Source: a bacterium (lineage in GTDB: Bacteria; 4484-113; JAFGCY01). From it: a DNA stretch of 64,000 bases. The notes under the pieces are model-generated. The model saw only the letters and a list, made by a program, of their open reading frames with translations. It did not search any database and was not told the origin of the DNA. Of the stretch, positions 1,919 to 33,081 are shown in pieces. The DNA lies in the NCBI GenBank assembly GCA_041395205.1, contig JAWLAZ010000003.1:215063-279062 (forward strand). The letters run 5' to 3'. Position 1 is the first letter of the stretch, and every line of letters begins with the position of its first letter. Both the position numbers and the translations under genes were made by a program.

Positions 1919-2597
1919 GCAGGGCCCGGCAGGGAGCGGCCTCAGCATTGTCCAGCTTGAGTGGCAGGCAGATCAGCCGGTAGAGCCCCGGCGCTGCATC
2001 CCTGAGGATGATGTGCTCCAGCAGCAGGAAGCCCGCTCCCAGCAGGATGCGGTGCACGGGGAAATCCCCTGCCCCGTCACGCTCAACTGACAGGTAATCG
2101 ATCCCCACAAGCCTGGCCTGCCGCCTCAGCAGGAACTGTGCGGCATCCACCGTCAGGCCGGGATGCCCGGCAACATAATCCCGCTCGTCATATGCGGATG
2201 CATCAGTCAGCAGCAGCACTGCAGTATCGTCCCGCTGCAGCCTCCCTCGCAGCTGCTCAGCTGAGAGGTCATGCAGGCCCCTGCAGTCCAGCACTTCCGC
2301 CAGCGGGCAGAAGGCCTCCAGCGGATAATCCCCGATGCATGCTCCTCCGGGAATGAAATGCCGCGGTGCATCCAGATGCGTACCGCAATGGCTGTGCAGC
2401 GCGATCCTGGTGAAGCTGTACTCCCCACCCCGGTCCACGTCCGGGTCGCGCAGCAACTGCAGCGGTGGATCGCCGGGATAGCCTGCACTGTCCTCGCGCA
2501 GCGTGCGGCTGATGTCGATCAGCATCCCAGAAGCATAGCAGCCCTGCTCCGGCGTTTTCCCGCAGATGCGCAACCTCAGGGCCGGCGCGGGGGTCAT
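1899..2597 (-). CDS. cyclase family protein / kynurenine formamidase-like (KynB)
   Basis: HSHCGTHLDAPRHF matches the HxGTHxDAPxH cyclase/arylformamidase signature; the true start is probably the internal Met (MLIDISRTL, about 2525), which would leave room for a divergent promoter. Confidence 0.7.
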   Translation of the reverse strand: MTPAPALRLRICGKTPEQGCYASGMLIDISRTLREDSAGYPGDPPLQLLRDPDVDRGGEYSFTRIALHSHCGTHLDAPRHFIPGGACIGDYPLEAFCPLAEVLDCRGLHDLSAEQLRGRLQRDDTAVLLLTDASAYDERDYVAGHPGLTVDAAQFLLRRQARLVGIDYLSVERDGAGDFPVHRILLGAGFLLLEHIILRDAAPGLYRLICLPLKLDNAEAAPCRALLTAADP

Positions 2598-2602
2598 AAA
2601 TT

Positions 2603-3514
2603 ATGATAGTCACGATGGTATTTTTCCTTTACAACAAGGTGCTGCTGCGCTTCATCGTTGCGCTCTGCGGCATCGGGGTGGGACTGACCGCCTGGCAGTA
2701 CCTGGCACTCTCCCAGGCCAAGCTCGGCCGCCAGGGCCTGATCGATGCCTTTGCGATCATCTGCTTCCCGATCGCAGCCTGGCTGATCATGCTCACGGCG
2801 GAGGTCGTGGACAACCACTACGTGCGGGCCTTCTCCTGCCTCTGCATGCTGCTCGGCGGCTTCGTCAGTTACGGCTGGATCTTCCGCCAGGATGGACCGA
2901 TCCTCAGGGCCCTGCCCGGAGGCCCGGCCGGAATGCAGATCATCACGCTCGGCTTCTGGCTGGCGATGCTGCTCAGTCTCGCCATGCTGACCCTGCTGGT
3001 GATCCGGCTGATCCGGGACAAGCAGAACCTCGGCCGCATTCCCGGTGCCCAGGCGCAGCTGGACCAGATCCTGGCCACGGCTCCTGCCAGTCCGGCCGGA
3101 CCCCGGACCCCCGAGAAGCTTGAACCGATCCCGATTGACACAACTCCCATCGGAAGCGCAGGCAGCACTCAACCGGCTGCGGCTGCTGAACCCGTCCAGC
3201 CCCAGCGCAGCCCCGCACCGGTCTCCAAACTGGTTGCCATCGGCGGGCTGTATCTTGGCACGGAGTATCCCCTGGGCAGCGGCGAACACGGCATCGGCCG
3301 CGCGGACGCGGAGATTCTGCTGGACAGGGACAACCAGGTTTCCCGCAACCATGCCGGAATCAGCGTTGACGAACAGGGCATGGCCACGCTCAGCGACCGC
3401 GGCAGCACCAATGGTACCTTCCTCAACAATGCGAAGATTGACAGCGCCGCCCTGGCGCCCGGTGACGTGATCCGGATCGGCACCACGCAGTTCCGTGTCG
3501 AGGGCAGCTCCTGA
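2603..3514 (+). CDS. membrane protein with C-terminal FHA domain
   Basis: Four or five N-terminal hydrophobic helices; C-terminal GR..A.I.L....VSR.HA.I....G...L.D.GSTNGTF.N FHA signature. Confidence 0.7.
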   Translation: MIVTMVFFLYNKVLLRFIVALCGIGVGLTAWQYLALSQAKLGRQGLIDAFAIICFPIAAWLIMLTAEVVDNHYVRAFSCLCMLLGGFVSYGWIFRQDGPILRALPGGPAGMQIITLGFWLAMLLSLAMLTLLVIRLIRDKQNLGRIPGAQAQLDQILATAPASPAGPRTPEKLEPIPIDTTPIGSAGSTQPAAAAEPVQPQRSPAPVSKLVAIGGLYLGTEYPLGSGEHGIGRADAEILLDRDNQVSRNHAGISVDEQGMATLSDRGSTNGTFLNNAKIDSAALAPGDVIRIGTTQFRVEGSS

Positions 3515-5352
3515 TGCGCATCCTCCAGCGCCTGCTGCCGCTGTGCCTGCTGCTGCTGTTGCCAATGGCGGCAGTGCGGGCCCAGGATCCGGCCACCCAG
3601 CAGCCCAGCCCGAAGGAAGAGAATGAAGGCGCTCCCAGTGAGCGAGGTACCCGGCGCAATGCCGACCCGCACCTGCAGTACAAGGAGAATGTCGAGCTGC
3701 GGGTCAGTCAGATCGAGCTCAGTGACTTCCCCACCGTGCGGGCCTTTGTCTCGGTTGCCGACGAAGGCGGTGTGCCCGTGCGCACCCTGCTGCCCGAGGA
3801 CTTCGTCGTCGAGGAGAACCAGCAGTCGGTGGGCGAGGTGCGCTTTGCCAACCGTGATGAACTGAACCTGCCGCTCTCCGTGATGTTCGTGGTGGACGTC
3901 AGCGGCAGCATGCTCGGTGACAACAGCCAGACCGGCCCCACTCCGCTGGACATGGAGAAGGAGGCTATCCGCGAATTCGTGGGCCAGCTTCAGCCCGATG
4001 ACCGCGTCGGCCTCGTGACCTTCTCGGATGCCGCCTATTCCACCGTGCGCATGACCTCCGACCACCAGCAGCTGCTGAAGGAACTGGACTTCCTCGCGGC
4101 CTGGGGCCAGACCACGCTCTGGGACGGACTGAAGATCGGCATCGAGGACCTCGTTGACGACGAGCAGGAGGCCCGCAAGGCCCTGATCGTGCTCTCGGAC
4201 GGCATGGACACGAACAGCCTCGAAACCCTGCAGACCGTGATGCAGATCTACGAGTCCGAGGCCATGGCCGAGAACAAGGGCTTCTCGATCTACACCCTGG
4301 CACTCGGTGAACTCGTCAACCGCTCCGCCCTGCAGCAGCTAGCCAAGAAGACCGGCGGCCTGCATTTTGACAGTCCGACTGCCGGCGATCTCGGCGAGGT
4401 CTACCAGAGCATCCTCAACCAGATCCAGAATGAGTACCTGCTGGAGTACACCTCCATCCAGGCTGCCGCCGAGGGCAAGCTGACCGACATCAACGTCAGC
4501 CTCAACAATGTGCGCAGCACGATTCCGGGACAGTACAGCTACCGCAGCCCCGGTCTGGCCCAGGCGCTTGGCCGGGCACTCGTCCCCGGCCTGATCGCCA
4601 TCGCCGTGGTGCTCGTGCTGCTGATCATCGCCACGATCTACCGCATCTCGCGGCGGGTCTGGCTTACCCTGCAGATCACGCCGCTGGAAGGCAAGGACTA
4701 CGTGATCGGCACCAGCGGGATTGACATAGGCACCAGTGAACTCTGCCAGCTGCGCGTCGCCGGTGACCCGGGCATGCTGCCGATCCACGCCAGCATCCGC
4801 GAAACCAACGACGGATATCTGCTGGAGGTCACAGACCCCGATTCACCGATCCTCTACGGCGGCGCGATGCTGGCCCGCAAGCTGCTGCGCAGCGGTGATG
4901 CCTTCATGCTCGGCACCTCCAGCTTCATCTTCACGGAGAAGGAGTATCGCGAGGGTGAAGGCCGGGTTGAGGAAGCCCGCTATTTCCGCGATGAACCGCT
5001 GGGACAGATCACCGAGCAGGACATGCTCAGCGGTGCAGTGCCCAGCGCTTCCGGCAAGCGGCCTACGGCACTTGTCGGCACTGAAGGAGCCTGCAGCGGA
5101 CAGCGCTTCGACCTGGTCGAGGGCGAGAATGCCATCGGCCGCAGCCAAGGCAGCATCGTACTCAGCCAGGAAAGCCAGGCCAGCCGCCGGCACTGCGTGA
5201 TCACACTCACGATGGATACTGCGAGCATCACTGACAGCGGCAGCACCAACGGCAGCTCCGTCAACGGCAGCCGCCTGCAGCCCGGAATGGCTCAGCAGCT
5301 GAAGAGTGGTGACACCCTGCAGATTGGCAGCAGCCGCTTTCGGTTAGAATAG
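3514..5352 (+). CDS. secreted/membrane VWA domain protein with two C-terminal FHA domains
   Basis: Signal peptide LLLLLLPMAAVRA; VWA-type MIDAS motif VVDVSGSM; TM helix LIAIAVVLVLLIIATIY; two FHA-like segments ending STNGSSVNGSRL; its ATG overlaps the stop of the upstream FHA gene. Confidence 0.7.
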   Translation: MRILQRLLPLCLLLLLPMAAVRAQDPATQQPSPKEENEGAPSERGTRRNADPHLQYKENVELRVSQIELSDFPTVRAFVSVADEGGVPVRTLLPEDFVVEENQQSVGEVRFANRDELNLPLSVMFVVDVSGSMLGDNSQTGPTPLDMEKEAIREFVGQLQPDDRVGLVTFSDAAYSTVRMTSDHQQLLKELDFLAAWGQTTLWDGLKIGIEDLVDDEQEARKALIVLSDGMDTNSLETLQTVMQIYESEAMAENKGFSIYTLALGELVNRSALQQLAKKTGGLHFDSPTAGDLGEVYQSILNQIQNEYLLEYTSIQAAAEGKLTDINVSLNNVRSTIPGQYSYRSPGLAQALGRALVPGLIAIAVVLVLLIIATIYRISRRVWLTLQITPLEGKDYVIGTSGIDIGTSELCQLRVAGDPGMLPIHASIRETNDGYLLEVTDPDSPILYGGAMLARKLLRSGDAFMLGTSSFIFTEKEYREGEGRVEEARYFRDEPLGQITEQDMLSGAVPSASGKRPTALVGTEGACSGQRFDLVEGENAIGRSQGSIVLSQESQASRRHCVITLTMDTASITDSGSTNGSSVNGSRLQPGMAQQLKSGDTLQIGSSRFRLE

Positions 5353-5356
5353 CGCC

Positions 5357-5959
5357 GTGATCGTCATCGCCAGCAGGAACGAGGGCAAGGTCCGCGAGAT
5401 CGCGGTATTGCCGGCTGCCAGCGGGCTGGAGCTGCGCCCTGTCTCCGACTTCCCCGGCTGTCCGGACATCGAGGAGAACGGCACGACCTGCGAGGAAAAT
5501 GCCGTGATCAAGGCCGTCAAGTACAGCCTCTGGCTGCGCCGCGAACACGGCATCGCCCCCGCGGTGATCAGCGAGGACAGCGGCCTGATGGTCTTCTCCC
5601 TGCTGGGCTGGCCCGGGGTGCACAGTGCGCGCATCGCCGAGACCGACGTGGAGCGCAACTGGATGGTGCTCGACCGGCTCAGCGGCCAGCGTGATCGCAG
5701 CGCACAGTTCCTCGCTCATACCGCGCTCGCCGTCAACGGCGTGCTGGTGGAGAGCTGGCGTGGCAGCGTGACCGGGGTGATCGCGGAGGAACCGCGGGGC
5801 AATCAGGGCTTCGGCTATGATCCGATCTTCATCGATCAGGCCAGCGGCCGCAGCTTCGCTGAGCTGGACCGCAGCCGCAAGAATGAACTCTCACACCGCA
5901 ACCAGGCCTGGACCCAGGCCTTTGAATACCTGCGCCAGCACAGCCTCGGACTCAGATGA
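5357..5959 (+). CDS. rdgB: non-canonical purine NTP pyrophosphatase (dITP/XTP pyrophosphatase, Ham1/RdgB family)
   Basis: IVIASRNEGKVREI N-terminus, GFGYDPIF and KNELSHR motifs; GTG start. Confidence 0.85.
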   Translation: MIVIASRNEGKVREIAVLPAASGLELRPVSDFPGCPDIEENGTTCEENAVIKAVKYSLWLRREHGIAPAVISEDSGLMVFSLLGWPGVHSARIAETDVERNWMVLDRLSGQRDRSAQFLAHTALAVNGVLVESWRGSVTGVIAEEPRGNQGFGYDPIFIDQASGRSFAELDRSRKNELSHRNQAWTQAFEYLRQHSLGLR

Positions 5960-7274
5960 GGTTGCGGGCCTTGACCTGCAGGTACTGATTGATCACGGCC
6001 CCGTTGAGCTTGTCGGCCGCCACGTTGACGATCATGCAGCCACGGCTGCGCAGCTCCTGCACGGTGCGCCGCTTCTGCTGCAGCAGCAGCTCCGCGCTGG
6101 CCTTGATGTAGGCATCATCGCTGCCTTCCGTCCGCTTGCGGGCCATCTCCTCGATCTGCGGGTCATCAAGGATCACGATGATCGGCAGGTGCGTGCGTGC
6201 CAGGCGGCTGAGATTGGCAACCGCGCGCTGGCTGGAGACGCTGTCCACCAGATCGGTGAATAGCACCACGAGCCCGCGCTTGCTGTGCCGCGAGCGCAGC
6301 ATGGCCAGCACCCGCGCATAGTCGCTTTCCACGAACTCCGGCTGCAGGTCAAACACCGCCTCGATGATTGCATCGAGCTGGCGCTGGCGCCTGGCCGGTG
6401 GCACATAGCGCCGCGTCTCACTGGAGAAGGCCATCAGGCCCACGCGGTCCTTCTGGGACAGCGCCAGGTAGGCCAGCTGCACCGCTGCATCCAGATAGCG
6501 GTCCAGCCGCGGGCGTCCACCGATCTCGGTGTGCATCAGCCGGCCGCAATCGACGAGCAGCATCAGGTCGCGGCTCTGGTCAACCTGGAACTGGTTGACA
6601 ACCGGCCGGCCGCGCCGCGCCGTGGCCTTCCAGTTGATGCCGCGGTATTCATCATCCGGCGTGTACTCACGCAGGTGGTCGAAATCCGTACCCCGCCCGA
6701 ACTTGCGGCTGTGATGCTGGCCGATGCCCCACAAGCGGCGGCGGTGCGCGAACAGGTCGCCACCGGTCAGTTCCTCGATCTGCGGATAGACCCGCACTGA
6801 CTGTCCAGGCTCGATGCGCAGCTGCGTGATCCAGAGCTGCAGTCCGGCCAGTACACGCAGGCCGATCCCGCCCAGCTCACGTTCACCGCGTTCCAGGCTG
6901 CGGATCACGAGCGGGATCTCACAGCTTTCCCCGGCCGCGGCAGTGGCCCAGCCCGTTGCCAGACTCTTGCGGAACTCCGGCAGGCTGTCCTCATGGATCC
7001 GGAAGCGCACCGGGATCCGGCTGGCATTGTGCAGCAGGTGCATCCCGCTGCGCGGTGTCTCCACGGTCACGGCCTGCGGGAAATCCCGCTCCACGCTGAG
7101 CTTGCCGCGCAGCATGCTGCGCGTCGACAGCAGGTCGAGCAGCGCGAGCATCGCCAGCAGCAGCGACAGCGCACTGGCAATCAGGAAGGCCGGTGCCCAG
7201 AGATATCCCAGCAACGCGCACAGCACCAGCACCAGGCCGGCCTGCCCCATCCGCGGCGAGGGAAAACTCAGCAC
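5952..7274 (-). CDS. DUF58 domain protein (VWA-like, MoxR-associated family)
   Basis: N-terminal double TM segment; central LREYTPDDEYRGINWKATARRGRPVVNQF..LLVDCGRLM, typical of DUF58; converges on rdgB with an 8-nt overlap. Confidence 0.65.
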   Translation of the reverse strand: MLSFPSPRMGQAGLVLVLCALLGYLWAPAFLIASALSLLLAMLALLDLLSTRSMLRGKLSVERDFPQAVTVETPRSGMHLLHNASRIPVRFRIHEDSLPEFRKSLATGWATAAAGESCEIPLVIRSLERGERELGGIGLRVLAGLQLWITQLRIEPGQSVRVYPQIEELTGGDLFAHRRRLWGIGQHHSRKFGRGTDFDHLREYTPDDEYRGINWKATARRGRPVVNQFQVDQSRDLMLLVDCGRLMHTEIGGRPRLDRYLDAAVQLAYLALSQKDRVGLMAFSSETRRYVPPARRQRQLDAIIEAVFDLQPEFVESDYARVLAMLRSRHSKRGLVVLFTDLVDSVSSQRAVANLSRLARTHLPIIVILDDPQIEEMARKRTEGSDDAYIKASAELLLQQKRRTVQELRSRGCMIVNVAADKLNGAVINQYLQVKARNLI

Positions 7275-7277
7275 GGC

Positions 7278-8480
7278 CTAGTACTCGGCGAGCAGCCTCT
7301 TGGCCACGCGGTACATCAGCTCGTTGCCGATGGCCATCGCATCCTCGTCAATGTTGAACTTCGGGTGGTGGTGCGGGTAGATGCACTCCTTCTCGGTGCT
7401 GGCGGCACCGACGAAGGCGAAGGCCCCGGGCACCTCGGCGAGGAAGTCGCTGAAGTCCTCGGCACCCATCGTCTGCTGGTCATCGGTGACGTTGGCAGCG
7501 CCGACGATGGCGATCGCCTCCTCACGCACCAGCTCCGCCACGCGGGCATCATTGACCGTTGCCACCTGCTCATGGGAGTAGTCGATGTCGGCATTGCAGC
7601 CGAGACAGTCGGCGATGCCGTTCACGACCTCATGGATCCGGCGCTTCAGCACCTGGTGCACATCGCGCTCGAAGACGCGCACGCTCATGGTCAGCTTTGC
7701 AAACGGCGGGATGATGTTGTGGGCGGTACCGGCGTGGAACTCGCTCACCGTGATCACCGCGCTCTTGAGCGGGTCGATGTTGCGCGAGACGATGCTCTGC
7801 AGCGCCGTGACGATCTGCGCCCCGCAGTAGATCGGGTCGTTGCCACCATGCGGGAAGGCCGCATGCGTGCCCTTGCCGTGGATCACGATATGCACCGTGT
7901 CCACCGCCGCCATCACCGGCCCGGCACTGATCTGGATCTGGCCCGTCGGGCAGCCGGCCCAGATGTGCTGCCCGTAGCAGACATCCACGCCCGGGCCCTT
8001 CAGGGCGTTGTCAGCGATCATCTTCTGCGCGCCGTGGTGGCCTTCCTCACCGGGCTGGTAAAGCAGCTTGATCCGCCCGCGGGAAATGCCCTCCTCCTTC
8101 AGCCGGCGGCTGACGGCGAGCTGCATCGCGGTATGGGTGTCATGCCCGCAGGCATGCATCCGCCCCACGTTCTGCGAGACGTACTCATGCGTGTTCTCCT
8201 CCGTGATCGGCAGCGCATCGATGTCCGCACGCAGCATCACGGTCGGTCCGGCCTGGCCGCTGTCAATCAGGCTGATCACACCGGTCTCGGCGCAGCGCTG
8301 CGACTCGAGCCCGTAGCTGTTCAGCTGCTGCTCGATGTACTGCGCCGTCTCATGCGTTTCCATCCCGACCTCGGGATGCTCATGCAGGTAGCGGCGGTTG
8401 CTGACGACCTCGCCGTGCAGGCTGCGGGTCACGTCGTCAAGATTGACTTCGGGAAGCAGGGGATGCTGTATTGCTGACAT
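7278..8480 (-). CDS. M20D family amidohydrolase (hippurate hydrolase / N-acyl-L-amino acid amidohydrolase type)
   Basis: HACGHDTHTAM metal-binding motif and overall M20 peptidase organisation; 400 aa. Confidence 0.8.
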   Translation of the reverse strand: MSAIQHPLLPEVNLDDVTRSLHGEVVSNRRYLHEHPEVGMETHETAQYIEQQLNSYGLESQRCAETGVISLIDSGQAGPTVMLRADIDALPITEENTHEYVSQNVGRMHACGHDTHTAMQLAVSRRLKEEGISRGRIKLLYQPGEEGHHGAQKMIADNALKGPGVDVCYGQHIWAGCPTGQIQISAGPVMAAVDTVHIVIHGKGTHAAFPHGGNDPIYCGAQIVTALQSIVSRNIDPLKSAVITVSEFHAGTAHNIIPPFAKLTMSVRVFERDVHQVLKRRIHEVVNGIADCLGCNADIDYSHEQVATVNDARVAELVREEAIAIVGAANVTDDQQTMGAEDFSDFLAEVPGAFAFVGAASTEKECIYPHHHPKFNIDEDAMAIGNELMYRVAKRLLAEY

Positions 8481-8567
8481 CCCTTGATTCTAGCGCGAAC
8501 CGTGCCAACTGTAGACGCAGCGGCAGCGCCGGGCGTACTAAACGGATGTAAGCTATAATAACGGGTC

Positions 8568-10784
8568 GTGGCAGGAGCCAGGCTGGAGATCGGTGGCAGG
8601 GACGGTCGGACCGTGGTGTTCCGCGGCAACCGCAGGTACCTGCCCGCGCGCATCCGCAGCGTGATCAACAGCCATTTCAGCAACTGGAATGCGCTGAAGG
8701 AAATCTCCGCCTGGCCGGAACTGCTGCGTGAGCTGGCCGAGGTCAATGCCCAGAAGACCTTTGAAGGCACGGACTGGGCCGCGCTCAATGCCTTCTATGA
8801 CGAGGAGATGAAGCGCTTCAGCGTCCTGATCCACGGCGCGGTGGCGGAGGGCGTTGCCAGTTTCCATGTGCACCCCGCCGTGGCGGACACCGCACCGCGT
8901 ATCCGCCAGATCCGCACGCAGTACTGCGATGCGGAGGGCAGGCTGCTGCACAACCACGACATCTGGCGCGTGGAGAAGCTGCTGCGCCGGCATGCCTCCA
9001 ATGTTCGCTTCACGCCGGACTTCGTGCCGGCCCTCAAGCACTTCGCCACGGATGCCCTGAGCATTGAACCCAGCCTGAGCTTCTTCCGCCAGATCCAGGT
9101 CTACCACACCCCGCAGTTCCTGAATGTAGAACTGCAGCGGATCCTCAGCCCGGCTATCGACCGCGTACATACCCTGCTTGATCCGACTGCCCTGCAGCAG
9201 CTGCTGGACAGCCTGGAACAGGCCGGTGCGCGCCTGCGGGTCGACCCCGGGATTGCCGAGATCGTGCAGCACTACAATGCCCTGCGCCGGGTCTGCTCCG
9301 ATCCCGGCTACGAGCAGTCCGTTGCCAATGTACTGAATGGCAAGCTGCGCGCCGAGCTCTACGGCTACCAGCGTGAAGGTGTGGGCTTCCTCGTGCACAA
9401 TCGCCGGGCTCTGCTGGCTGACGATATGGGGCTTGGCAAGACCCTGCAGGCGATGAGCGGTGCGCTGTACCTGAAGCAGCTCGGAGAGGTGCAGCGCGTA
9501 CTCGTGGTCTGTCCCTCCTCGCTCAAGTACCAGTGGCAGGCCGAGATCAGCAAGTTCACCGGCGAACGCGTGCAGGTGATCGGCGGCACAAAGCAGGAAC
9601 GCCAGGCAATCTACGATGCCGCCGGTGCCGGCGGCGGCGGCCTGCTCGGAGTGGACGACACGCCCTTCTTCAGCGTGATCAACTATGAGCTGGTGCATCG
9701 CGACATCGAGCAGCTGACCAAGCTGGCCCCGCAGCTCCTGATCCTTGATGAGGCCCAGCGCGTCAAGAACTTCCGCACCAAGACCGCCCAGGCGGTGTTC
9801 TCGATCCCCGCTGCCAACGTCTTCGTGCTGACCGGCACTCCGCTCGAGAACCAGCTGATGGAACTGTTCACGATCCTCAAGTTCGTTGACGACCGCGCCC
9901 TCGGCAAGAACCCCATCGCCTTCCGTGACCGCTATGTGCTCACCGACCAGTTCGGCAGCATCAAGGGCTACCGCCATGTCGAGGAAGTGGCCCGCAAGAT
10001 CGCCGGGATCACCCTGCGCCGCACCAAGGAAGAAGCCCTCGAGGACCTGCCGCCGCTCGTGACCAGCTACGCCCGTCTCGAGCTGACCGACGAACAGAAG
10101 GGCATCTACCGCGAACTGCGCGGCGAGGCCCGCGAGATGCTGAGCCAGGAGGCCTGGGACAGCACACATACACAGAATGCGATGGTGCTGCTGCAGCGCC
10201 TGCGCGAGGTCTGCGACAGCCCGGAACTGATCGACCCGCAGTACACCAGCAGCCAGAAGCTCAATGAGCTGGAGGCGATCCTTGAGGATGAGGTCAGCAC
10301 CCTGGACCGCCAGGTGATCATCTTCACGCAGTGGACGCGCATGGGCGAAATCATCCTGCGCCTGCTGACATCACGCGGCTACAGCTGCGGCTTCCTGCAT
10401 GGCGGGCTGAAGGCCGAGGAGCGCCAGCAGCTCGTGGAGCGCTTCCAGCGCGGCGAGGACCGGATCTTCCTCTCCACGGATGCCGGCGGCACCGGCCTCA
10501 ACCTGCAGAGCGCTTCGATGGTGATCAACTATGACCTGCCCTTCAACCCGGCCAAGCTTGATCAGCGCGTGGCCCGCGCCCACCGCCTGGGCCAGAAGCA
10601 AACTGTATTTGTAGTCAACATGATCTGCCGTAATACTGTTGAGGAAAGACTGGTCAGGATCCTCAGCGAGAAGAAGAGCCTGTTTGATGATGTATTCGGT
10701 AACATATCTGACCCGCGCAACATTTCCGGCGCGTCAATGTCCCCGCGCTCCATGCGGGAACTGCTGAGGGAGCTGGTCAGATGA
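8568..10784 (+). CDS. SNF2 family DNA-dependent ATPase/helicase with an uncharacterised N-terminal region of about 260 aa
   Basis: Helicase motifs DDMGLGKTLQA (I), ILDEAQRVKN (II), LTGTPLENQLMEL (III), and C-terminal FLSTDAGGTGLNLQ and RAHRLGQ; GTG start is uncertain. Confidence 0.85.
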   Translation: MAGARLEIGGRDGRTVVFRGNRRYLPARIRSVINSHFSNWNALKEISAWPELLRELAEVNAQKTFEGTDWAALNAFYDEEMKRFSVLIHGAVAEGVASFHVHPAVADTAPRIRQIRTQYCDAEGRLLHNHDIWRVEKLLRRHASNVRFTPDFVPALKHFATDALSIEPSLSFFRQIQVYHTPQFLNVELQRILSPAIDRVHTLLDPTALQQLLDSLEQAGARLRVDPGIAEIVQHYNALRRVCSDPGYEQSVANVLNGKLRAELYGYQREGVGFLVHNRRALLADDMGLGKTLQAMSGALYLKQLGEVQRVLVVCPSSLKYQWQAEISKFTGERVQVIGGTKQERQAIYDAAGAGGGGLLGVDDTPFFSVINYELVHRDIEQLTKLAPQLLILDEAQRVKNFRTKTAQAVFSIPAANVFVLTGTPLENQLMELFTILKFVDDRALGKNPIAFRDRYVLTDQFGSIKGYRHVEEVARKIAGITLRRTKEEALEDLPPLVTSYARLELTDEQKGIYRELRGEAREMLSQEAWDSTHTQNAMVLLQRLREVCDSPELIDPQYTSSQKLNELEAILEDEVSTLDRQVIIFTQWTRMGEIILRLLTSRGYSCGFLHGGLKAEERQQLVERFQRGEDRIFLSTDAGGTGLNLQSASMVINYDLPFNPAKLDQRVARAHRLGQKQTVFVVNMICRNTVEERLVRILSEKKSLFDDVFGNISDPRNISGASMSPRSMRELLRELVR

Positions 10785-11629: not shown

Positions 11630-13612
11630 TCAGAAGATCCGTGTGTGGTAGAGATACCACTCCACGCTGATCAGCAGCAGCACGATGCCGATGATCCAGG
11701 GATAGAACTCCCGGTTGCGCATCACTTCCTGCACGCCGCGGATCTCCCCGAGGCTTTCCGTGCCGTTGCTGGCCAGGAACTCCTCGGCATTCTTAGTGCG
11801 GATCGTCTGCGCCGGAGCGATGTTGCTCTCATACTCATTCACGAGGCTGACCGGCAGCAAGGTCTCACTGATCAGGCCTCCGGCATCATCCAGATAATTG
11901 ATCTCATAGATCCCCGTGCGCCGTGTGTCGCTGATCGCGAAGCGCCGTGAATTGAGCGGGACCGTCTCCTCGCTGCCATCCGGCATGCGCAGGCGGTAAC
12001 TTACGGCCTCCACCGGTGCCAGCAGCTCAGCGGTCAGCCCGGCGCTGATGCCGTTGCCGGCGCTGCCCGCGCTGCCCTGGCCGAGGTAGGTGATGGTATC
12101 CATCATGAACAGCGGGAAGGCGCTGAGCACCGGGAAGTTGCTATCGTAGATGTCGAAGGCCAGGTAGACCGTGCGCTGGCCGTTGTTGTCACCTTCGACG
12201 ACCAGCGGGCCTTCACTCGTGTCAATGATGCTGCGCGCATAGGGCTTGAGCTGCACGCGGCGCTGGCTGTTGAGGTTCAGCGTGTTGAAGCGCGCGATGC
12301 GCGTGATCGGATGCGTCACGCTTTCCCCGACCACGGCCAGGTAGACCGGCGGGTCCGCCTGGTAGTCCTTCTGCACCTCCGCCCCGGCCTCCACCGGTAG
12401 CAGCGGGCTGGCCGTGCTGTTGATGAACAGGTAGCTGTCCGAGGGGTCGGCAACGAATGGCGCATCACCCTCCACCACCCAGACATCCATGTCGGTGCTG
12501 ACAGGCTGGCCGTCGTCAATGCTCTCGCCGCTGTCAGCGGTGATGATCTGCGTGAAGCTGCTGCCGTCGTACTCGAAGTAGTCAATGTCCGGCAGGCTCT
12601 GCATCAGCGCCCGGAGCAGGATGCTGTCACCCTCTGAGCAGAGCGCGACCTTGTAGCGCGGACGCTGCGGCAGCACGATCCAGGCTTCGTTGTCCTCGCG
12701 CAGGGTGTCCTCGCTGTCGATCTCGACCTTCAGCGGATCCGGGAAGTACGGCACCTGGTCAATCACGATCTCGCGGCGCTGCCCCGGACGCAGGCTGACT
12801 TCCTCGCTCACGCTGTCAACGTCATTGCGAAACAGCGTCAGCGTGAAGTCCTGCTGCGTGCCGTAGAAATTGTGTACGGCCACGAACAGTTCATAGAAGC
12901 CGCTGAGCGGATTGAGCCGCGCCCCCGCACCGACGATCGCCACGTTGTCAGCGCTGGAGCCGACCGGGAAGAAGCGGATCTGCAGGTCCGTGGTGCTGTC
13001 CGGACTGAGGTCCTCCACGGCCCCGTCGGAGAAGATCACCACCTGCAGTTCACCGTCGCGCTCCGAGAGCGATGAGCAGAAGCGCATTGCGCTGTCCAGG
13101 TCGGCCTGGCCTCCGGCATAGTCCCGGGCACGGGAGATCGCCTTCTTCAGTGTGCTCTTGTTGCCGGTGAAGCCGCTCAGCGTGATCGGGCTCTGCGGTC
13201 CGGCCACGACAACCATGCCCTCGGCACCGCGCGGGAAGCCGGTCACGGCGTCATCCGCCAGCCGCAGGGCATCAGCCAGGCGGTCCGGGCTGCCATCGCG
13301 GGCCAGCATCGATGCGCTGGCATCGATCACGAAGATCGTCTTGCCGCGCTCAACGAAGTTGTCAAACATGAAGGGCCGGGACAATGCCAGCGCCAGCAGG
13401 ATCAGCGCGATGATCTGCAGGATCATCAGCAGGTTGCGCCGCAGCTTCTGCCAGGGGGCATTGGCACGGAAGTCGGCCAGGGCCTGCTCCCAGAGCAGCG
13501 TCGAGCTGACATCAACCTTGACGCGCTTGAGCTTGAGGATATAGAGCAGGATGATTCCGCCGGCGAGCGCCCCCCAGGCCAGTGCGAGCGGATTTAGGAA
13601 GAATCTTTCCAC
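11630..13612 (-). CDS. BatA-like VWA domain protein with N-terminal double-TM domain
   Basis: N-terminus LALAWGALAGGIILLYILKLKR....LLWEQALA, then a second TM; VWA MIDAS TIFVIDASASM; long extracellular C-terminal region ending in a TM helix. Confidence 0.65.
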   Translation of the reverse strand: MERFFLNPLALAWGALAGGIILLYILKLKRVKVDVSSTLLWEQALADFRANAPWQKLRRNLLMILQIIALILLALALSRPFMFDNFVERGKTIFVIDASASMLARDGSPDRLADALRLADDAVTGFPRGAEGMVVVAGPQSPITLSGFTGNKSTLKKAISRARDYAGGQADLDSAMRFCSSLSERDGELQVVIFSDGAVEDLSPDSTTDLQIRFFPVGSSADNVAIVGAGARLNPLSGFYELFVAVHNFYGTQQDFTLTLFRNDVDSVSEEVSLRPGQRREIVIDQVPYFPDPLKVEIDSEDTLREDNEAWIVLPQRPRYKVALCSEGDSILLRALMQSLPDIDYFEYDGSSFTQIITADSGESIDDGQPVSTDMDVWVVEGDAPFVADPSDSYLFINSTASPLLPVEAGAEVQKDYQADPPVYLAVVGESVTHPITRIARFNTLNLNSQRRVQLKPYARSIIDTSEGPLVVEGDNNGQRTVYLAFDIYDSNFPVLSAFPLFMMDTITYLGQGSAGSAGNGISAGLTAELLAPVEAVSYRLRMPDGSEETVPLNSRRFAISDTRRTGIYEINYLDDAGGLISETLLPVSLVNEYESNIAPAQTIRTKNAEEFLASNGTESLGEIRGVQEVMRNREFYPWIIGIVLLLISVEWYLYHTRIF

Positions 13613-13646: not shown

Positions 13647-14462
13647 TCACATTGCGAGGTTTTCGAGGTCCTCGGGTGCCAGCATCCCACGCAGCTTGCC
13701 GAGCGCCTTGCGCGTCAGCCGCGAGACATTCATCTGGCTCGTGACGAGGATGTCGGCGATTTCCTTCTGCGTCTTCTGCTCGAAGAAGTAGAGCTTGATC
13801 ACCTTGCTCTCCGTCTCCGTCAGGTTGGAGAGGATGCTCTCCCAGAAGATCCCGCGCTTGGTGCTGTTCAGGTCGTGGCTTGCACTAGCCGCGCCGTCGT
13901 CGGACATGCTGAAGCTGATGTCGCTTTCGCGCTCATTGTCCTTGAAGCTCTGCGGATGGTAGGCACTGCCGAGCTCCATCGCCTCCAGCACCTGCTCCTC
14001 ACTGAAGCCGGTCTTCGTGGCGATCTCAGCGACGGTCGGCTCCTGCTCGGAGTTTGCATTGAGCTCATTCACGGTGTTGAAGACCTTGAGTGAGCGCTCC
14101 TTCAGGTCACGCGGCACGTTGAGTGCCCAGGTCTTGTCACGGAAGTAGCGCTGGATCTCCCCCTGGATCGTCTGCCAGGCATAGGTGGAAAAGCGGTAGT
14201 TGTATTCAAGGTCGAAGCGCCGCACAGCCAGCAGGAGCCCGTAGCTCCCGACCTGCACCAGGTCGTCGAACTGGTCCGGCTGGTACTTGAACTTGTGGAC
14301 GATACGGTAGACGAGGGGCTTGAACTTCTCGACGATCAGTTCTTCATTGGACTGGGTCGGATCGGCGATGTAACGCGCGAAAAGGGCACGCTCTTCCTCG
14401 CGCTCCCTTTCACGGTCTTCAGTTTCGTAAAGCTGGTTAGGCTCGTCCGTCCGTTCTGTCAT
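13647..14462 (-). CDS. RNA polymerase sigma factor, sigma-70 group 3 (SigB/SigF/WhiG-like)
   Basis: Region 2 DLVQVGSYGLLLAVRRFD..YRFSTYAWQTIQGEI and region 4 QKEIADILVTSQMNVSRLTRKAL; chosen start MTERTD is at 14462 (the ORF is open to 14528) and overlaps the upstream RsbW-like gene by 26 nt. Confidence 0.8.
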   Translation of the reverse strand: MTERTDEPNQLYETEDREREREEERALFARYIADPTQSNEELIVEKFKPLVYRIVHKFKYQPDQFDDLVQVGSYGLLLAVRRFDLEYNYRFSTYAWQTIQGEIQRYFRDKTWALNVPRDLKERSLKVFNTVNELNANSEQEPTVAEIATKTGFSEEQVLEAMELGSAYHPQSFKDNERESDISFSMSDDGAASASHDLNSTKRGIFWESILSNLTETESKVIKLYFFEQKTQKEIADILVTSQMNVSRLTRKALGKLRGMLAPEDLENLAM

Positions 14463-14865
14463 CGAAGATGAATGGCCTGTCTTCCCGGTATTTGATGTCG
14501 AAACCGATGTCGAGGTGCTCCACGCCATCGATCACGCTGGAATTATACTCGCCACCCAGGTTCTTGAGGACGGCCAGATTCGCGGCGTTGGTGACACTCT
14601 TGTGCTTGCCGCTGGGGTCGGAGATCGAAACGGAGATGTGAGACTCGTCCTGCGTCCAGCGCAGGTTGATCAGACCGGTGGCCCCGGTACATTTCTCGGC
14701 CACAGTGATGAAGGCCTCCCCGATCACGAGCTTCAGGTTCTCCAGTTCGTCCAGCGGCAGTCCCAGCCTGTTACCCAGACCGGAGACGAGCAGCCGCACC
14801 ACGGAGACGTAGTCCGCATTGGTGGGAACCTTGAGCTCAACCGAGTTATCCATTACTTTCACCAT
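14437..14865 (-). CDS. anti-sigma factor, RsbW/SpoIIAB-like HATPase-fold serine kinase
   Basis: About 142 aa; N-terminal ELKVPTNADYVSVVRLLVSGLGNRLGLPLDELENLKLVIGEAFITV resembles the N-box region of RsbW/SpoIIAB; AGGAGA RBS 6 nt before the ATG at 14865; translationally coupled to the downstream sigma factor. Confidence 0.6.
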   Translation of the reverse strand: MVKVMDNSVELKVPTNADYVSVVRLLVSGLGNRLGLPLDELENLKLVIGEAFITVAEKCTGATGLINLRWTQDESHISVSISDPSGKHKSVTNAANLAVLKNLGGEYNSSVIDGVEHLDIGFDIKYREDRPFIFDDRTDGRA

Positions 14866-14941
14866 TTGATTCTCCTGAGGAAGTCTCACTGATTCTGGAA
14901 CAAAACCCTGCGGTCCCGGTCCATCATCCTCACGCCTTAAT

Positions 14942-30639: not shown

Positions 30640-33081
30640 TTGAACATGCATCATCCAATCCGCTCGCTGTCCTTGCTTTCCGCCATCGCAATGCTGCTGG
30701 TGCTCTGTGGCTGCCCGCCTGCCTCTGACGGTGATGGCAAGGGCACACAGACCGGAGGAAGCGGCGGCACCGGCACCGTTCCCAACGCGGGAGCCGGTGC
30801 TGATGGCCAGCCGGACATGTCCGCCCTCTACAATGGCGATAACCTGAACTATGAGCGTGTGAACGTTGGCCTCAAGGGTCAGGCTCTCGACATCATCGTT
30901 CCGGATGCACCGCTGACCGGCGCGAAATCCGCCAGCACATTCTTCTTCGGGGATTCCCAGGAACCGACCGGGATCTACATGCGCGACCTGCTGAAGGGCA
31001 CGCGCAGCCAGCTGACAAGCGTGAAGATGATGGACAAGGGCAGCCTCAACTGCAGCAACGACGGCAGTTTCCTGGCGTATGCGCGACTGCGGGAAATCGG
31101 CAACGTGATTGACAATCCGGAGTTCAACTATCCGCCGAACGTGGCGGAGCTCTACCGCCTGGAAACGGCAAGCGGCGAGGAAACCAAGCTCTTCGACTTC
31201 GGTGGGGACTTCGCCAGCTACCGCAATGACTCGCTCTTCCCCTTCATCAGTGAGGACGGCGAACGCATCGTCTGCCTGTCATATGACATCAACCGCCTGC
31301 TGCTGCAGACCCAGTGCATAGAGTGGCAGAAGCTCTACGACCAGGTCATCGAGCGGCGCGGCACCGTCACTGAAGAGGAGCGTGCCGAGGACGACGAGAA
31401 CATGCGGATCTTCCTGCGCATGGATCACGTTGCACCGGAACTGCGCAAGGTGGGCTTTGAGGCCACTGCAGAAGTGGCGATTGACGATGTGGCCCTGCGC
31501 GCAGTGCAGGATGTCTTCGAGAACAACAAGTATCCGATCATGGCCCTGCTGATCTGGGAGAATGGCCAGGCCCGCTCCCAGGTCCTGACTCCGGTTCCCG
31601 GCCAGGAACGCTCCCTGCACTTCATCCTTGCCGTCAGTGGCGACCGGATCCTGATGGGAGCCAATGAGCCGGGAGCTGACCCCACCGAAGCACAGCAGAT
31701 CTACAGCGTGGATCTCTCCACTGGCCAGCTCTCGGTATTCGGCAGCTACCAGGGTGCGCCGAGCCTGATCGAGTTCGATGGCAGCGGCCGGAACCTCGTG
31801 GTCGCCTACAACCCCTTCGACCGCCAGAACAAGCGCATCGACACCGAGACACACGTACGCATCATGCCAGTCGATGGTTCAGACCCGGTGGATCACAACC
31901 TTGGCGCTGACTACTTCGGCTACCTCGATCTCAGCAGCGATGCCAGCATGCTGGTCGGCCAGAACCGCGATGACCTGTGGCTTTACCGTGTGGATGTCGC
32001 CAGCGGCCAGGCCACCAAGCTCAGCGAGCACTTCATTGACCTCGACGGGCTGTATCTCGATGGCCCGGGCCAGCATGCCGTATACATCGAAAACGGCATT
32101 TCCTTCGTAACTCCCGTGCTCGCGGATCCGCAGTCCAGTCCGGACTGGGTGGCCGAGTCCTATTTCAGCAATTACCGTGAAAAGGTGCTGGACTTCCTGG
32201 AAACTGCCGGCTTCGAGATCCGCGATGACATCGTCCTGCGCTTTGAGGAACGCACAGGCATGGGTGTGAGTGAAACCAGTATTGAGCTGTCCTATGAGCG
32301 CAATCCGCAGGATACCGTACTGTTCCGCTATGACAACAATGAAGGCTCCTTCCGGTCCATGTGGGCACCGAATCCAGGCACCCTGAAGCTGCGCGAGGAT
32401 CTGCGCAGAAGTGACATGGACTACTACGAATGCGAGGAACAGGTGCAGGCCCTGCTTGACCGCCTTGGCTGGCAGAACCCGGACACCCGTGAGTCCTGGT
32501 ACCCGGGAGCAGCGCCGCTTTACGACGGCAAGAGCGACAGCTACATCGTCACGGTCCGGGACGGTTACTGGTACGATCCTGCGGAGCAGAAGCACTGGGT
32601 CTACAACAGTGAGGCGACCGTCCGCCTGGTTGCCGGCAGTGGTGATATCGCGGAGATTAATTACCAGGCCTTTGAGCAGCTCCACGACCAGCCGATCCGG
32701 GAGGACATCGCGGATGCGGAATTCAACATGCGCAATTACCGTAACGAACCGCTGCCAGAAGGTGCGGTGGAATTCGACTTCGAGAACACACGCCTTTTGA
32801 TCACGGAGAAGAAACCGGATGTCCTTTCCCCCGGTGACTACCAGAGCCAGGTTGAGGATCGGATCGTGTATGAGATCAATGCCTATCTGGATGGTGAACT
32901 GGTGCTGGGCAGCCTTGTTGATGCAGAGACCTTCGAAATGCTGGGACGCCTGTACTATGCACCGCTGGGCATGAACAACCCGAACCAGCCCCTCCCCAAC
33001 AGAGTCGGCGGCGCGGCGAGCGATCCCGGGGCAAGCCCGGATGCGGGCATGGCTCCGGATGCCGGGGGTGTGGGTCCCTGA
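30640..33081 (+). CDS. large hypothetical lipoprotein (813 aa), possibly beta-propeller-like
   Basis: Lipobox LVLCGC, G/T-rich linker, no recognisable catalytic motifs; coding-like codon usage throughout. Confidence 0.5.
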   Translation: MNMHHPIRSLSLLSAIAMLLVLCGCPPASDGDGKGTQTGGSGGTGTVPNAGAGADGQPDMSALYNGDNLNYERVNVGLKGQALDIIVPDAPLTGAKSASTFFFGDSQEPTGIYMRDLLKGTRSQLTSVKMMDKGSLNCSNDGSFLAYARLREIGNVIDNPEFNYPPNVAELYRLETASGEETKLFDFGGDFASYRNDSLFPFISEDGERIVCLSYDINRLLLQTQCIEWQKLYDQVIERRGTVTEEERAEDDENMRIFLRMDHVAPELRKVGFEATAEVAIDDVALRAVQDVFENNKYPIMALLIWENGQARSQVLTPVPGQERSLHFILAVSGDRILMGANEPGADPTEAQQIYSVDLSTGQLSVFGSYQGAPSLIEFDGSGRNLVVAYNPFDRQNKRIDTETHVRIMPVDGSDPVDHNLGADYFGYLDLSSDASMLVGQNRDDLWLYRVDVASGQATKLSEHFIDLDGLYLDGPGQHAVYIENGISFVTPVLADPQSSPDWVAESYFSNYREKVLDFLETAGFEIRDDIVLRFEERTGMGVSETSIELSYERNPQDTVLFRYDNNEGSFRSMWAPNPGTLKLREDLRRSDMDYYECEEQVQALLDRLGWQNPDTRESWYPGAAPLYDGKSDSYIVTVRDGYWYDPAEQKHWVYNSEATVRLVAGSGDIAEINYQAFEQLHDQPIREDIADAEFNMRNYRNEPLPEGAVEFDFENTRLLITEKKPDVLSPGDYQSQVEDRIVYEINAYLDGELVLGSLVDAETFEMLGRLYYAPLGMNNPNQPLPNRVGGAASDPGASPDAGMAPDAGGVGP

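Follow-up and report, generated by a model that had tools for sequence, protein, structure and literature searches.

What do two adjacent genes do together when one encodes a membrane protein with an FHA domain and the other a VWA protein that also carries FHA domains? The preliminary description of this locus had taken the two, here called ORF1 and ORF2, for a translationally coupled pair that looks like a transmembrane signalling or scaffold module. We analysed them within the window, which is the whole 64-kb stretch of DNA, part of a chromosome from an uncultured bacterium of the candidate phylum UBP7. The pair is real and conserved and is built from familiar parts, and similar clusters occur elsewhere. 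Judged from sequence, ORF1-ORF2 appears to be a variant of the known vWA/FHA signalling modules, with a predicted function.

The features of the first gene are the following.

2603-3514, + strand: ORF1 (303 aa), tetraspan membrane protein ending in a canonical FHA domain
2636-3025, + strand: four-helix transmembrane bundle, residues ~12-141
3035-3217, + strand: disordered Pro/Ala-rich linker, residues ~145-205
3218-3511, + strand: canonical FHA domain, residues ~206-303

ORF1 is coding-like (GC3 = 0.82). Its translation probably begins with the ATG at 2615, which makes a protein of 299 aa: the orthologues open with MV(F/Y)L(L/F)YNK and the NCBI product has the same length. Four hydrophobic helices are seen in the hydropathy profile, and AlphaFold2 (AF2) models residues 12-141 as a helical bundle with pLDDT >90. 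Invariant motifs of the bundle are YNKxLLR at the N-terminus, AEVxDxHYxR between helices 2 and 3 and WxFxxDGP between helices 3 and 4. This membrane domain is represented by 15 cluster representatives among 1.84 billion proteins. In the linker, where residues 160-198 have pLDDT <50, there is a short motif L-x-x-I-P-x-D-x-x-P with L173, I176, P177 and P182 conserved. The Pfam FHA model matches residues 231-293 with an E-value of 7e-16 (PF00498, 58.9 bits, cut-off 20.7) and the pThr-contacting residues G232/R233, S247/H250 and N270/G271 are invariant in 20-21 orthologues. ORF1 had been described as a multi-TM protein with a cytoplasmic FHA domain, which these results bear out.

The second gene has a more complex order: signal peptide, Pro/Gln-rich tail, beta-sandwich, VWA with its MIDAS, beta-hairpins, transmembrane helix, degenerate FHA, linker and canonical FHA.

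3514-5352, + strand: ORF2 (612 aa)
3514-3582, + strand: signal peptide, residues ~1-23 (MRILQRLLPLCLLLLLPMAAVRA, followed by QD), from hydropathy and family alignment
3730-4515, + strand: periplasmic module of beta-sandwich and VWA, residues 73-334 (TIGR03436, acidobact_VWFA)
4555-4647, + strand: transmembrane helix with conserved flanks, residues ~348-378
4657-4938, + strand: membrane-proximal degenerate FHA-fold domain, residues ~382-475
5068-5349, + strand: C-terminal canonical FHA domain, residues ~519-612

ORF2 is also coding-like (GC3 = 0.84). Its N-terminus has a signal-peptide-like h-region and then a family-conserved small-x-small site before Gln (AxA followed by Q). TIGR03436 matches residues 73-334 with 92.4 bits, above the NCBIfam cut-off of 81.25, and within this stretch residues 123-296 are matched by VWA_2 (Pfam: PF13519) at 5e-20 and VWA (Pfam: PF00092) at 1e-17. 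The MIDAS residues D128-x-S130-x-S132, T200 and D229 do not vary among 21 members of the family, and such a complete MIDAS implies that a protein or envelope ligand would be bound in a divalent-cation-dependent manner. Hydropathy, family alignment and AF2 agree on a single transmembrane helix at residues ~355-378, around which R344, P346, G347, L348, L352, R354, G359, L370, T374 and R380 are invariant. The C-terminal FHA is matched by Pfam over residues 541-605 at 1.8e-18 (PF00498, 67.2 bits, cut-off 20.7), and G542/R543, S557/R558/H560 and S577/N579/G580 are invariant in 20-21 orthologues. Pfam thus supports the FHA and VWA assignments, and together with hydropathy, family alignment and AF2 it agrees with the topology first proposed, with a signal peptide, a periplasmic VWA, one membrane crossing and cytoplasmic FHA domains.

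The claim of two FHA domains in ORF2 holds in full for the C-terminal one, while the membrane-proximal one is degenerate: Pfam finds a single FHA in ORF2, with no match in residues 382-475 at E<=0.01, and profile comparisons and AF2 support the fold of the other. Compared with the two canonical FHA profiles, residues 382-475 give an hhalign probability of 86-92% and E-values of 5e-6 to 7e-7. When the family profile was searched against the PDB, the top 18 matches were all FHA domains, with the best at 2.9e-4; a search with the single sequence gave EssC as best match, which was not significant (E 0.58). In the AF2 model (pLDDT 75-87) the region folds as a beta-sandwich. Its sequence is highly conserved (W383, T385, E392, G393, I405, G406, E409, D418, H425 and A426) and of the pThr-contacting residues (GR, the Ser of Ser-x-x-His, NG) it lacks all, with just His425 of the motif retained. 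Where the Arg is expected the residue varies (T/R/A/S/N), Leu or Gln stands in for the Ser, and 'DPxSPI' takes the place of 'STNG'. From these residues, the domain is unlikely to bind pThr and would rather have a structural or partner-docking role. A flexible linker of about 35 residues separates it from the canonical FHA. The motifs 'IPxDx[ST]P' of ORF1 and '[IL][TS]E' of ORF2 were considered as FHA ligands, and they are unconvincing as pThr sites since they are mostly Ser or not invariant.

The two genes meet in a stop/start junction, which had been described as an ATGA overlap.

3512-3516, + strand: TGATG junction of ORF1 and ORF2, 1-nt overlap
5357-5959, + strand: rdgB/Ham1-family NTP pyrophosphatase gene (Ham1p_like, 8.6e-47)

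The TGA of ORF1 (3512-3514) and the ATG of ORF2 (3514-3516) have one base in common, so that the overlap is 1 nt rather than 4 nt. The tight coupling itself is upheld, as relatives have similar junctions: L001 also overlaps by 1 nt, L004 overlaps by 4 nt, and in L003 the genes are 11 nt apart. A GAGGG lies 9 nt upstream of the ORF2 ATG and is a possible Shine-Dalgarno sequence. The rdgB gene starts 4 nt downstream of ORF2 and is probably in the same transcription unit; a promoter and terminator scan of 2300-6200 stayed at chance level. As the third gene of the cluster rdgB is conserved, and any functional tie to ORF1-ORF2 is putative.

Each of the 10 distinct UBP7 contigs that extend far enough upstream has the order ORF1-ORF2-rdgB, with 47-96% identity in ORF2, and rdgB lies downstream of the ORF2 homologue in 11 of 11 UBP7 contigs. 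The pairing is therefore kept in every related UBP7 contig with enough flank that was examined. At least 15 further pairs of ORF1-family and ORF2-family matches are on contigs of identical size, some of them only 2.5-5 kb. Both families have an equally narrow distribution of ~44-48 proteins. With the full-length ORF2 as query we found 44 homologues that cover the cytoplasmic region too, and we treat as a technical null that a word-indexed search with the cytoplasmic half alone (4531-5349), whose translation was confirmed, had no match. For the TIGR03436 region of ORF2, named after secreted acidobacterial VWFA-related proteins, most genome matches are Acidobacteriota proteins, and most of these align over ORF2 residues ~60-350, with the transmembrane and FHA part outside the alignment.

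Going by sequence, the pairing probably extends to an ORF1 relative of 31% identity whose flanks differ and which is followed after a 1-nt gap by a protein with signal peptide, Pro-rich stretch and 'IELxxFPxV..VSV' that resembles the ORF2 N-terminus. For L092 the evidence of pairing is a short N-terminal fragment (E 5e-4). The distant ORF1 relative P0193 has no ORF2-like gene after it and an unrelated upstream neighbour, but its contig of 2.3 kb is too short for this to be informative. ORF2 relatives at 36-38% identity (L005, L015, L016) have no ORF1 neighbour, which indicates that ORF2-type proteins can function without ORF1.

With moderate confidence we propose that ORF1 and ORF2 form a lineage-specific membrane phosphothreonine-reader scaffold, in which a periplasmic MIDAS ligand site is tied to Ser/Thr-kinase signalling encoded elsewhere. 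The proposal starts from the observed domain composition, conserved site residues, predicted topology, conserved adjacency and co-distribution of the two. ORF1 and ORF2, probably co-transcribed with rdgB, would be two inner-membrane proteins that jointly build the scaffold as a putative hetero-complex. After cleavage of the signal peptide, ORF2 would expose its TIGR03436-type beta-sandwich/VWA in the periplasm, where the MIDAS may bind a protein or envelope ligand, dependent on a divalent cation. It would cross the membrane once and present at the cytoplasmic face the degenerate FHA, the ~35-residue linker and the canonical FHA. The tetraspan bundle of ORF1 would carry a second canonical FHA on its disordered ~60-residue tether. 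Both canonical FHAs could then dock, in a pThr-dependent manner, on epitopes made by a Hanks-type Ser/Thr kinase encoded elsewhere or on its substrates. Phosphoproteins would in this way be concentrated at the membrane site of VWA engagement or, with the signal running in the opposite direction, VWA engagement would be coupled to phospho-dependent assembly. We infer this direction, and the kinase and the ligand, as parts of the proposal.

If this is true, the pair would be a compact, genetically linked example of how bacteria tie an extracytoplasmic MIDAS domain of adhesion type to phosphothreonine signalling in the cytoplasm with no resident kinase domain. The example would come from a phylum without cultured members and almost without functional annotation; our literature search on UBP7 yielded no account of its functions. 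Two domains are newly defined by the pair, a membrane domain of very narrow distribution, which is the ORF1 tetraspan bundle carrying AEVxDxHYxR, and a degenerate but conserved FHA stalk. Most of the practical benefit lies in annotation, where entries labelled 'VWA domain-containing' and 'FHA domain-containing' can now be presented together as a conserved pair. The pair opens or closes no long-standing question.

In a domain search of all likely genes across the whole window, which covers 64 kb of the 617-kb contig, neither Pkinase nor PP2C nor SpoIIE turned up, and a motif screen was equally negative. There is also no kinase or phosphatase in the conserved UBP7 synteny around the pair, and both absences count against the proposal. 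It had been said that no Ser/Thr kinase or PP2C is encoded near the FHA genes, which is correct for the entire 64 kb; that this is an oddity does not follow, because the genes of FHA proteins and those of their kinases often lie apart. The Ser/Thr-signalling reading gains support from distant VWA-TM-FHA relatives in clusters with PP2C or Hanks-type kinases. In one cluster (L086) all three architectures of the window recur, namely SP-VWA-TM-FHA (there with an additional Big_7), multi-TM-FHA and CxxC-FHA, next to a membrane PP2C and an SP-X-TM-FHA protein, although its multi-TM-FHA protein is not homologous to ORF1 in the transmembrane domain. Another, Acidobacteria-type cluster (L036) encodes VWA, ZnR-FHA, Pkinase-ZnR-FHA and FHA-GAF-SpoIIE proteins. 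Published vWA/STPK/FHA/PP2C operons, DRA0331-DRA0334 of Deinococcus radiodurans (bioRxiv 10.64898/2026.01.23.701218) and ArnA/ArnB (PMC6509490, PMC12852372), point the same way. The window resembles such clusters in the TIGR03436-like VWA, the FHA readers and the Zn-ribbon-FHA proteins, whereas the UBP7 pair clusters with neither kinase nor PP2C, has rdgB as third gene and has an extra degenerate FHA in ORF2. A transmembrane signalling or scaffold module, as first suggested, is with the help of these distant clusters the most reasonable reading of the pair, of which the architecture is observed and the role predicted.

The threonine-phosphorylation pathway of the P. aeruginosa T6SS consists of PpkA with a periplasmic VWA, Fha1 and PppA. 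Like ORF2, PpkA has a periplasmic VWA, one membrane crossing and a cytoplasmic pThr-signalling domain, with an FHA protein as reader, but the cytoplasmic part of ORF2 is FHA-FHA rather than a kinase. Membership in this pathway was rejected, as the TagH/Fha model TIGR03354 gives 22-57 bits (46.5 included) against a cut-off of 120 and the window has no T6SS genes. The T6SS Fha/TssL proteins have been described (PMC3953482). Membership in the mycobacterial FhaB/FipA family was rejected as well (NF049868, 62.2, 52.7 and 75.5 bits, cut-off 125): FhaB/FipA (Rv0019c) has an N-terminal FHA and a single transmembrane helix, whereas ORF1 has four helices and a C-terminal FHA, and the pknA/B-pstP-rodA-pbpA neighbourhood of FhaB/FhaA (Rv0020c) is absent around ORF1.

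FHA folds that act independently of phosphorylation are known from YscD/MxiG of the T3SS, EssC of the T7SS and GltG of Myxococcus. ORF1 and ORF2 might accordingly be structural parts of an envelope-spanning machine of secretion, pilus or gliding type, with the FHAs as phospho-independent ring or assembly modules, which we regard as unlikely. The YscD cytoplasmic domain model (Pfam: PF16697) is above cut-off on all canonical FHAs, but it matches only where PF00498 also matches. YscD, MxiG and EssC have degenerate FHAs, as does ORF2 in its membrane-proximal domain, for which EssC is the non-significant best single-sequence match; still, the invariant pThr-binding residues in two of the three FHA domains of the pair argue for phospho-dependent binding. 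Weak domain-level matches to GltG and TagH are set against equivalog models for TagH, GltG and FhaB that stay far below cut-off. In L088 a VWA-TM-FHA gene adjoins gp25, baseplate and VgrG-like genes, while the window and the conserved UBP7 flanks have no secretion, pilus or motility genes. Finally, the domain order of ORF2 is the reverse of that in YscD. For the same reason we rejected membership in the T3SS YscD/EscD family, in which an N-terminal FHA precedes the transmembrane helix and ring domains, as opposed to ectodomain-TM-FHA in ORF2; no T3SS genes are in the window. The ORF2 ectodomain, too, differs from those of YscD/EscD/MxiG and EssC, and the pair has canonical FHAs in addition.

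The adjacency of ORF1 and ORF2 could in part be general synteny conservation within one phylum, as UBP7 synteny extends over the entire block SKI-hyp395-cyclase-ORF1-ORF2-rdgB(-DUF58-M20-SNF2-LpxC). That it is inherited synteny and nothing else, with independent roles for the two proteins and ORF2 possibly acting with the neighbouring DUF58 and BatA-like genes in a Bat/MoxR-type system, seems improbable to us. The ORF2 relatives without ORF1 would fit, and no more than 8 kb separates the pair from DUF58 and BatA-like VWA genes. Against this, the two genes still overlap or nearly overlap where the flanks differ (DUF58 and M20 are lost from L003, L010 and L011), L091 and L092 have different neighbours, and the two families are equally narrow in distribution. 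ORF2 was rejected as BatA or BatB, whose model cut-offs it misses by a wide margin (45.5 vs 380 and 20.8 vs 350), and the N-terminal double-TM domain of BatA (Pfam: PF07584), found in the neighbouring gene at 11630-13612, has no match in ORF2. The window yielded no MoxR ATPase gene.

A more specific reading, which we hold to be very unlikely, is a UBP7-peculiar integrin-like bidirectional receptor. FHA docking would change how tightly the periplasmic MIDAS binds an envelope or extracellular ligand, and ligand binding would signal back. The docking of pThr on the two tethered FHAs would be relayed by the ORF1 bundle and by the ORF2 transmembrane helix with its degenerate-FHA stalk, which would make the ORF1 four-helix domain a previously undescribed membrane partner domain dedicated to coupling.

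A third FHA gene of the window lies 29 kb from the pair, between surE and etf genes.

34034-35026, + strand: ORF3, soluble protein of ArnA/FraH-like architecture, zinc ribbon plus two canonical FHA domains

As had been described, ORF3 has a zinc ribbon (CPHC-x11-CPSC) and two FHA domains; both are canonical with the pThr-contacting residues (PF00498, 88.9 bits over two stretches, cut-off 20.7), and there is no transmembrane helix. None of ORF1, ORF2 and ORF3 matched a defence system in PADLOC, so a defence role is unsupported. In the ArnA/ArnB module of Sulfolobus, a Zn-finger-FHA protein is combined with a beta-sandwich-vWA-helical domain protein (PMC6509490, PMC12852372). By analogy, the FHA of ORF1 or ORF3 would bind a phosphorylated ORF2 segment and switch a regulatory complex that controls, for example, surface-appendage expression, a reading that has little chance of being right. 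Membership in the ArnA/ArnB module was rejected. ArnA and ArnB are both cytosolic, with the FHA binding ArnB at its phospho-acceptor helical domain and the Zn finger contacting the beta-sandwich, whereas the VWA of ORF2 is between signal peptide and transmembrane helix, on the opposite side of the membrane from FHAs of the same polypeptide, the C-terminal helical domain of ArnB is replaced by TM-FHA-FHA, and the UBP7 pair is bacterial without arn kinases nearby. ORF3 may nevertheless be part of the same signalling network as ORF1-ORF2, and Zn-ribbon-FHA genes adjoin VWA-FHA genes in L036, L086 and L088.

The gene pair comprises ORF1, which encodes a tetraspan membrane protein with an FHA domain, and ORF2 directly downstream, which encodes a signal-peptide-bearing VWA protein with FHA domains. 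It is followed by rdgB.

2603-3514, + strand: ORF1, 303 aa
3514-5352, + strand: ORF2, 612 aa
5357-5959, + strand: Ham1/RdgB gene (rdgB, NTP pyrophosphatase), beginning 4 nt past ORF2

The preliminary description gave ORF1 and ORF2 an ATGA stop/start overlap. The junction reads TGATG, in which the last base of the ORF1 TGA is the first base of the ORF2 ATG, so the overlap is 1 nt only. A GAGGG lies 9 nt 5' of the ORF2 ATG. The true ORF1 start is probably the second in-frame ATG at 2615, because the orthologues open with MV(F/Y)L(L/F)YNK and NCBI lists the identical product at 299 aa. GC3 is 0.82 for ORF1 and 0.84 for ORF2, typical for genes of the window. The rdgB gene is convergent with an opposite-strand DUF58 gene. 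On the other side lies the divergent cyclase gene (1899-2615 region), whose start codon, in its longest reading, is separated by only 5 nt from the ATG of ORF1 at 2603. With deeper cyclase homologues, alignment begins only at residue ~21-25, and Met25 (~2525) is therefore the probable start, which would leave ~80-90 bp of intergenic sequence for divergent promoters.

Pfam searches bore out the proposed FHA and VWA assignments, with an FHA domain at residues 231-293 of ORF1 (7e-16), and a VWA domain at residues 123-296 (5e-20 and 1e-17) and a C-terminal FHA domain at residues 541-605 (1.8e-18) of ORF2. Residues 73-334 of ORF2 also pass NCBIfam TIGR03436 ('VWFA-related Acidobacterial domain') with 92.4 bits against a cut-off of 81.25. 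In the 21-member ORF2 family alignment the MIDAS residues D128, S130, S132, T200 and D229 are invariant, and so are the phosphothreonine (pThr) contacts G542/R543, S557/H560 and N579/G580 of the C-terminal FHA. The pThr-contacting residues of the ORF1 FHA are invariant in 20 orthologues.

The signal peptide and single TM helix described for ORF2 were both recovered: its N-terminus has an h-region followed by a small-x-small|Gln site kept across the family, which predicts a cleavable signal peptide, and one strong TM helix lies at ~355-378, followed by YRISRR. Together they predict a periplasmic VWA and two cytoplasmic FHA-fold domains. The AlphaFold2 (AF2) model of ORF2 (mean pLDDT 80) has the following order:

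residues 17-49: disordered Pro/Gln-rich N-terminal tail
residues 60-101: beta-sandwich
residues 121-305: VWA
after the VWA: two beta-hairpins
residues 348-378: long helix
after the long helix: FHA-like domain
residues 485-513: disordered linker
C-terminal: canonical FHA

ORF2 had been described with two FHA domains. The C-terminal one is canonical; the membrane-proximal one (~382-475) holds as an FHA fold but has no Pfam match and has lost pThr residues. The fold assignment comes from three sources: hhalign matches the family profile of this stretch, without a shift in register, to each of the two canonical FHA profiles (86-92% probability, E ~1e-6), its top 18 matches among PDB sequences are all FHA domains (DgcB 2.9e-4, FhaA 5e-4, then EmbR, Dun1 and GarA), and AF2 predicts a beta-sandwich. 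The pThr-contacting Arg, Ser and Asn are gone, with His425 alone kept, and the stretch is among the most conserved of the protein in the family alignment. It is probably a degenerate, phospho-independent FHA 'stalk', starting a few residues past the TM helix.

The AF2 model of ORF1 (mean pLDDT 83) consists of a four-helix membrane bundle at 12-141 (pLDDT >90), a disordered linker at ~145-205 and the FHA. The helix number is even and the most basic flank follows helix 4, which predicts that the N-terminus, the C-terminus and the FHA are all cytoplasmic. Searching 1.84 billion representatives with the membrane-domain profile found only 15 proteins, of ~280-320 aa, which share YNKxLLR, AEVxDxHYxR and a C-terminal FHA. 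In two distant ORF1-family proteins, P0196 and P0199, the linker between bundle and FHA holds CP(Y/F)CGE...C-x-C, an inserted zinc-ribbon-like element missing from the ORF1 of the window.

The closest genomes are metagenome-assembled genomes (MAGs) labelled UBP7, namely HKST-UBA03 at 96% identity and CP060262.1 (HK-STAS-UBP7_A-1), a complete 4.1-Mb chromosome, at 80%. Full-length relatives number ~44 for ORF2 and ~48 for ORF1, all in MAGs or metagenomes. The pairing proved to be conserved: an ORF1 orthologue lies immediately 5' of the ORF2 homologue in 10 of 10 distinct UBP7 contigs with upstream flank, spanning ORF2 identities of 47-96%, and the Ham1 gene lies immediately 3' in 11 of 11 UBP7 contigs. 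At the junction, the genes of the pair overlap by as much as 4 nt or stand as much as 11 nt apart, and rdgB overlaps the ORF2 homologue by 4 nt in locus L004. At least 15 further matches to the two families fall on longest contigs of identical size, including 2.5-5 kb, which indicates that the genes are neighbours there too. P0196 (31% identity to ORF1) has different flanking genes; after a 1-nt gap follows a gene whose product has at its N-terminus a signal peptide, then Pro-rich sequence, then IGQIELKEFPKVGLYVSVL, which matches the start of the ORF2 beta-sandwich. The contig is truncated, and the match suggests a pairing of the same type. At the ORF2 relatives of 36-38% identity (L005, L015 and L016) the ORF1 and Ham1 neighbours are both absent.

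Housekeeping genes surround the pair: shikimate-kinase-like, cyclase, rdgB, DUF58, M20 peptidase, SNF2 helicase, lpxC, a BatA-like VWA and a sigma factor. rdgB shows no obvious functional tie to the FHA and VWA proteins. The shikimate-kinase-like gene (210-734, +) ends in an ATGA overlap with the start of a gene (731-1918, +) for a 395-aa protein with a C-terminal TM helix and no Pfam or NCBIfam match; the two remain together in UBP7 loci down to ~26% identity. Within 8 kb, ORF2 has two other genes of VWA type nearby, DUF58+VWA_2 (5952-7274, -) and BatA-N+VWA_2 (11630-13612, -, 660 aa); the window yielded no gene for a MoxR-type ATPase.

Ser/Thr kinase and PP2C genes had been reported absent near the FHA loci. 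Pfam searches on all likely genes and a motif screen extend this to the entire 64-kb window, with no Hanks kinase, PP2C or SpoIIE domain found. The sole protein-kinase-like gene of the window (14437-14889, -) encodes an RsbW-like HATPase_c_2 anti-sigma kinase, a Ser kinase of the partner-switching type; a gene of the sigma-70 family (13647-14528, -) overlaps it.

The third FHA gene, ORF3 (34034-35026), was likewise upheld as a zinc-ribbon protein with two FHAs: Pfam recognises two stretches as FHA (3e-25) and gives a weak match to a zinc ribbon, and the sequence has CPHC-x11-CPSC and canonical residues in both FHAs. Its neighbours are surE and etfAB. Directly 5' of surE and ORF3 lies an 813-aa ORF (30640-33081, +) that is coding-like in composition and matches nothing in Pfam or NCBIfam. 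Further along, a gene for an 850-aa protein (41213-43765, +) has a weak cohesin domain as its only match (6.8e-6). dnaA (52607-54019, -) adjoins a GAF-GGDEF diguanylate cyclase gene (50809-52560, -), so the window is probably close to the chromosomal replication origin; cumulative GC skew has no turning point inside it.

The best-supported reading, to which we give an even chance, is that ORF1 and ORF2 form a lineage-specific inner-membrane scaffold that reads pThr marks. The analysis establishes which domains the two proteins have, which residues are conserved, their predicted topology and that the pairing is kept. In ORF2, one TM helix and the degenerate FHA stalk would join a periplasmic MIDAS-VWA to a canonical FHA on a tether, and the partner of ORF2 would be the ORF1 tetraspan protein with a second tethered canonical FHA. 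Both canonical FHAs would read marks written by a kinase encoded elsewhere. We infer the hetero-complex, its phospho-dependence, the ligand and the direction of signalling. A phospho-independent structural part of an envelope machine, like YscD, EssC or GltG, is unlikely, given the absence of genes for such a machine and the invariance of the pThr residues. We hold it equally improbable that the adjacency is mere synteny, or reflects membership of a Bat/DUF58 system. Least probable is a switch of the ArnAB kind, with an FHA bound to a segment of the VWA protein that has been phosphorylated. Topology excludes the ArnA-ZnF/ArnB contact; a version via the cytoplasmic linker could be accommodated.

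The domains, the theme of vWA and FHA in Ser/Thr signalling and fused VWA-TM-FHA proteins of other phyla are already known. Published cases of the same kind are ArnA/ArnB of Sulfolobus (PMC6509490, PMC12852372) and the vWA-STPK-FHA-PP2C operon of Deinococcus (bioRxiv 10.64898/2026.01.23.701218). What sets the pair apart is that the membrane domain of ORF1 has a very narrow distribution, that the degenerate FHA stalk is conserved, and that an uncultured phylum keeps the order ORF1-ORF2-rdgB fixed with no kinase or phosphatase gene nearby. The pair is of use to annotators and a sensible candidate for multimer modelling, but would not surprise a specialist.

More distant relatives tie the VWA-TM-FHA design to Ser/Thr phospho-signalling. 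Consecutive genes of locus L086 (P0045, 29% identity; 2559-9286) encode SP-VWA-Big_7-TM-FHA, a membrane PP2C, a multi-TM protein that ends in an FHA, CxxC-FHA and lastly SP-ectodomain-TM-FHA. The architectures of ORF2, ORF1 and ORF3 thus all recur there, together with a phosphatase. In its TM part, the multi-TM protein is an analogue of ORF1, not a homologue. The Acidobacteria-type locus L036 (1840-13917) has VIT-VWA, OmpA, TIGR03436-like VWA, Zn-ribbon-FHA, Pkinase-Zn-ribbon-FHA, RDD, Zn-ribbon-TPR and FHA-GAF-SpoIIE genes. In L088 (557-2867), SP-VWA-TM-FHA and CxxC-FHA genes lie beside contractile-injection baseplate and VgrG-like genes. These three clusters may represent a recurrent and little described VWA/FHA membrane signalling gene set.
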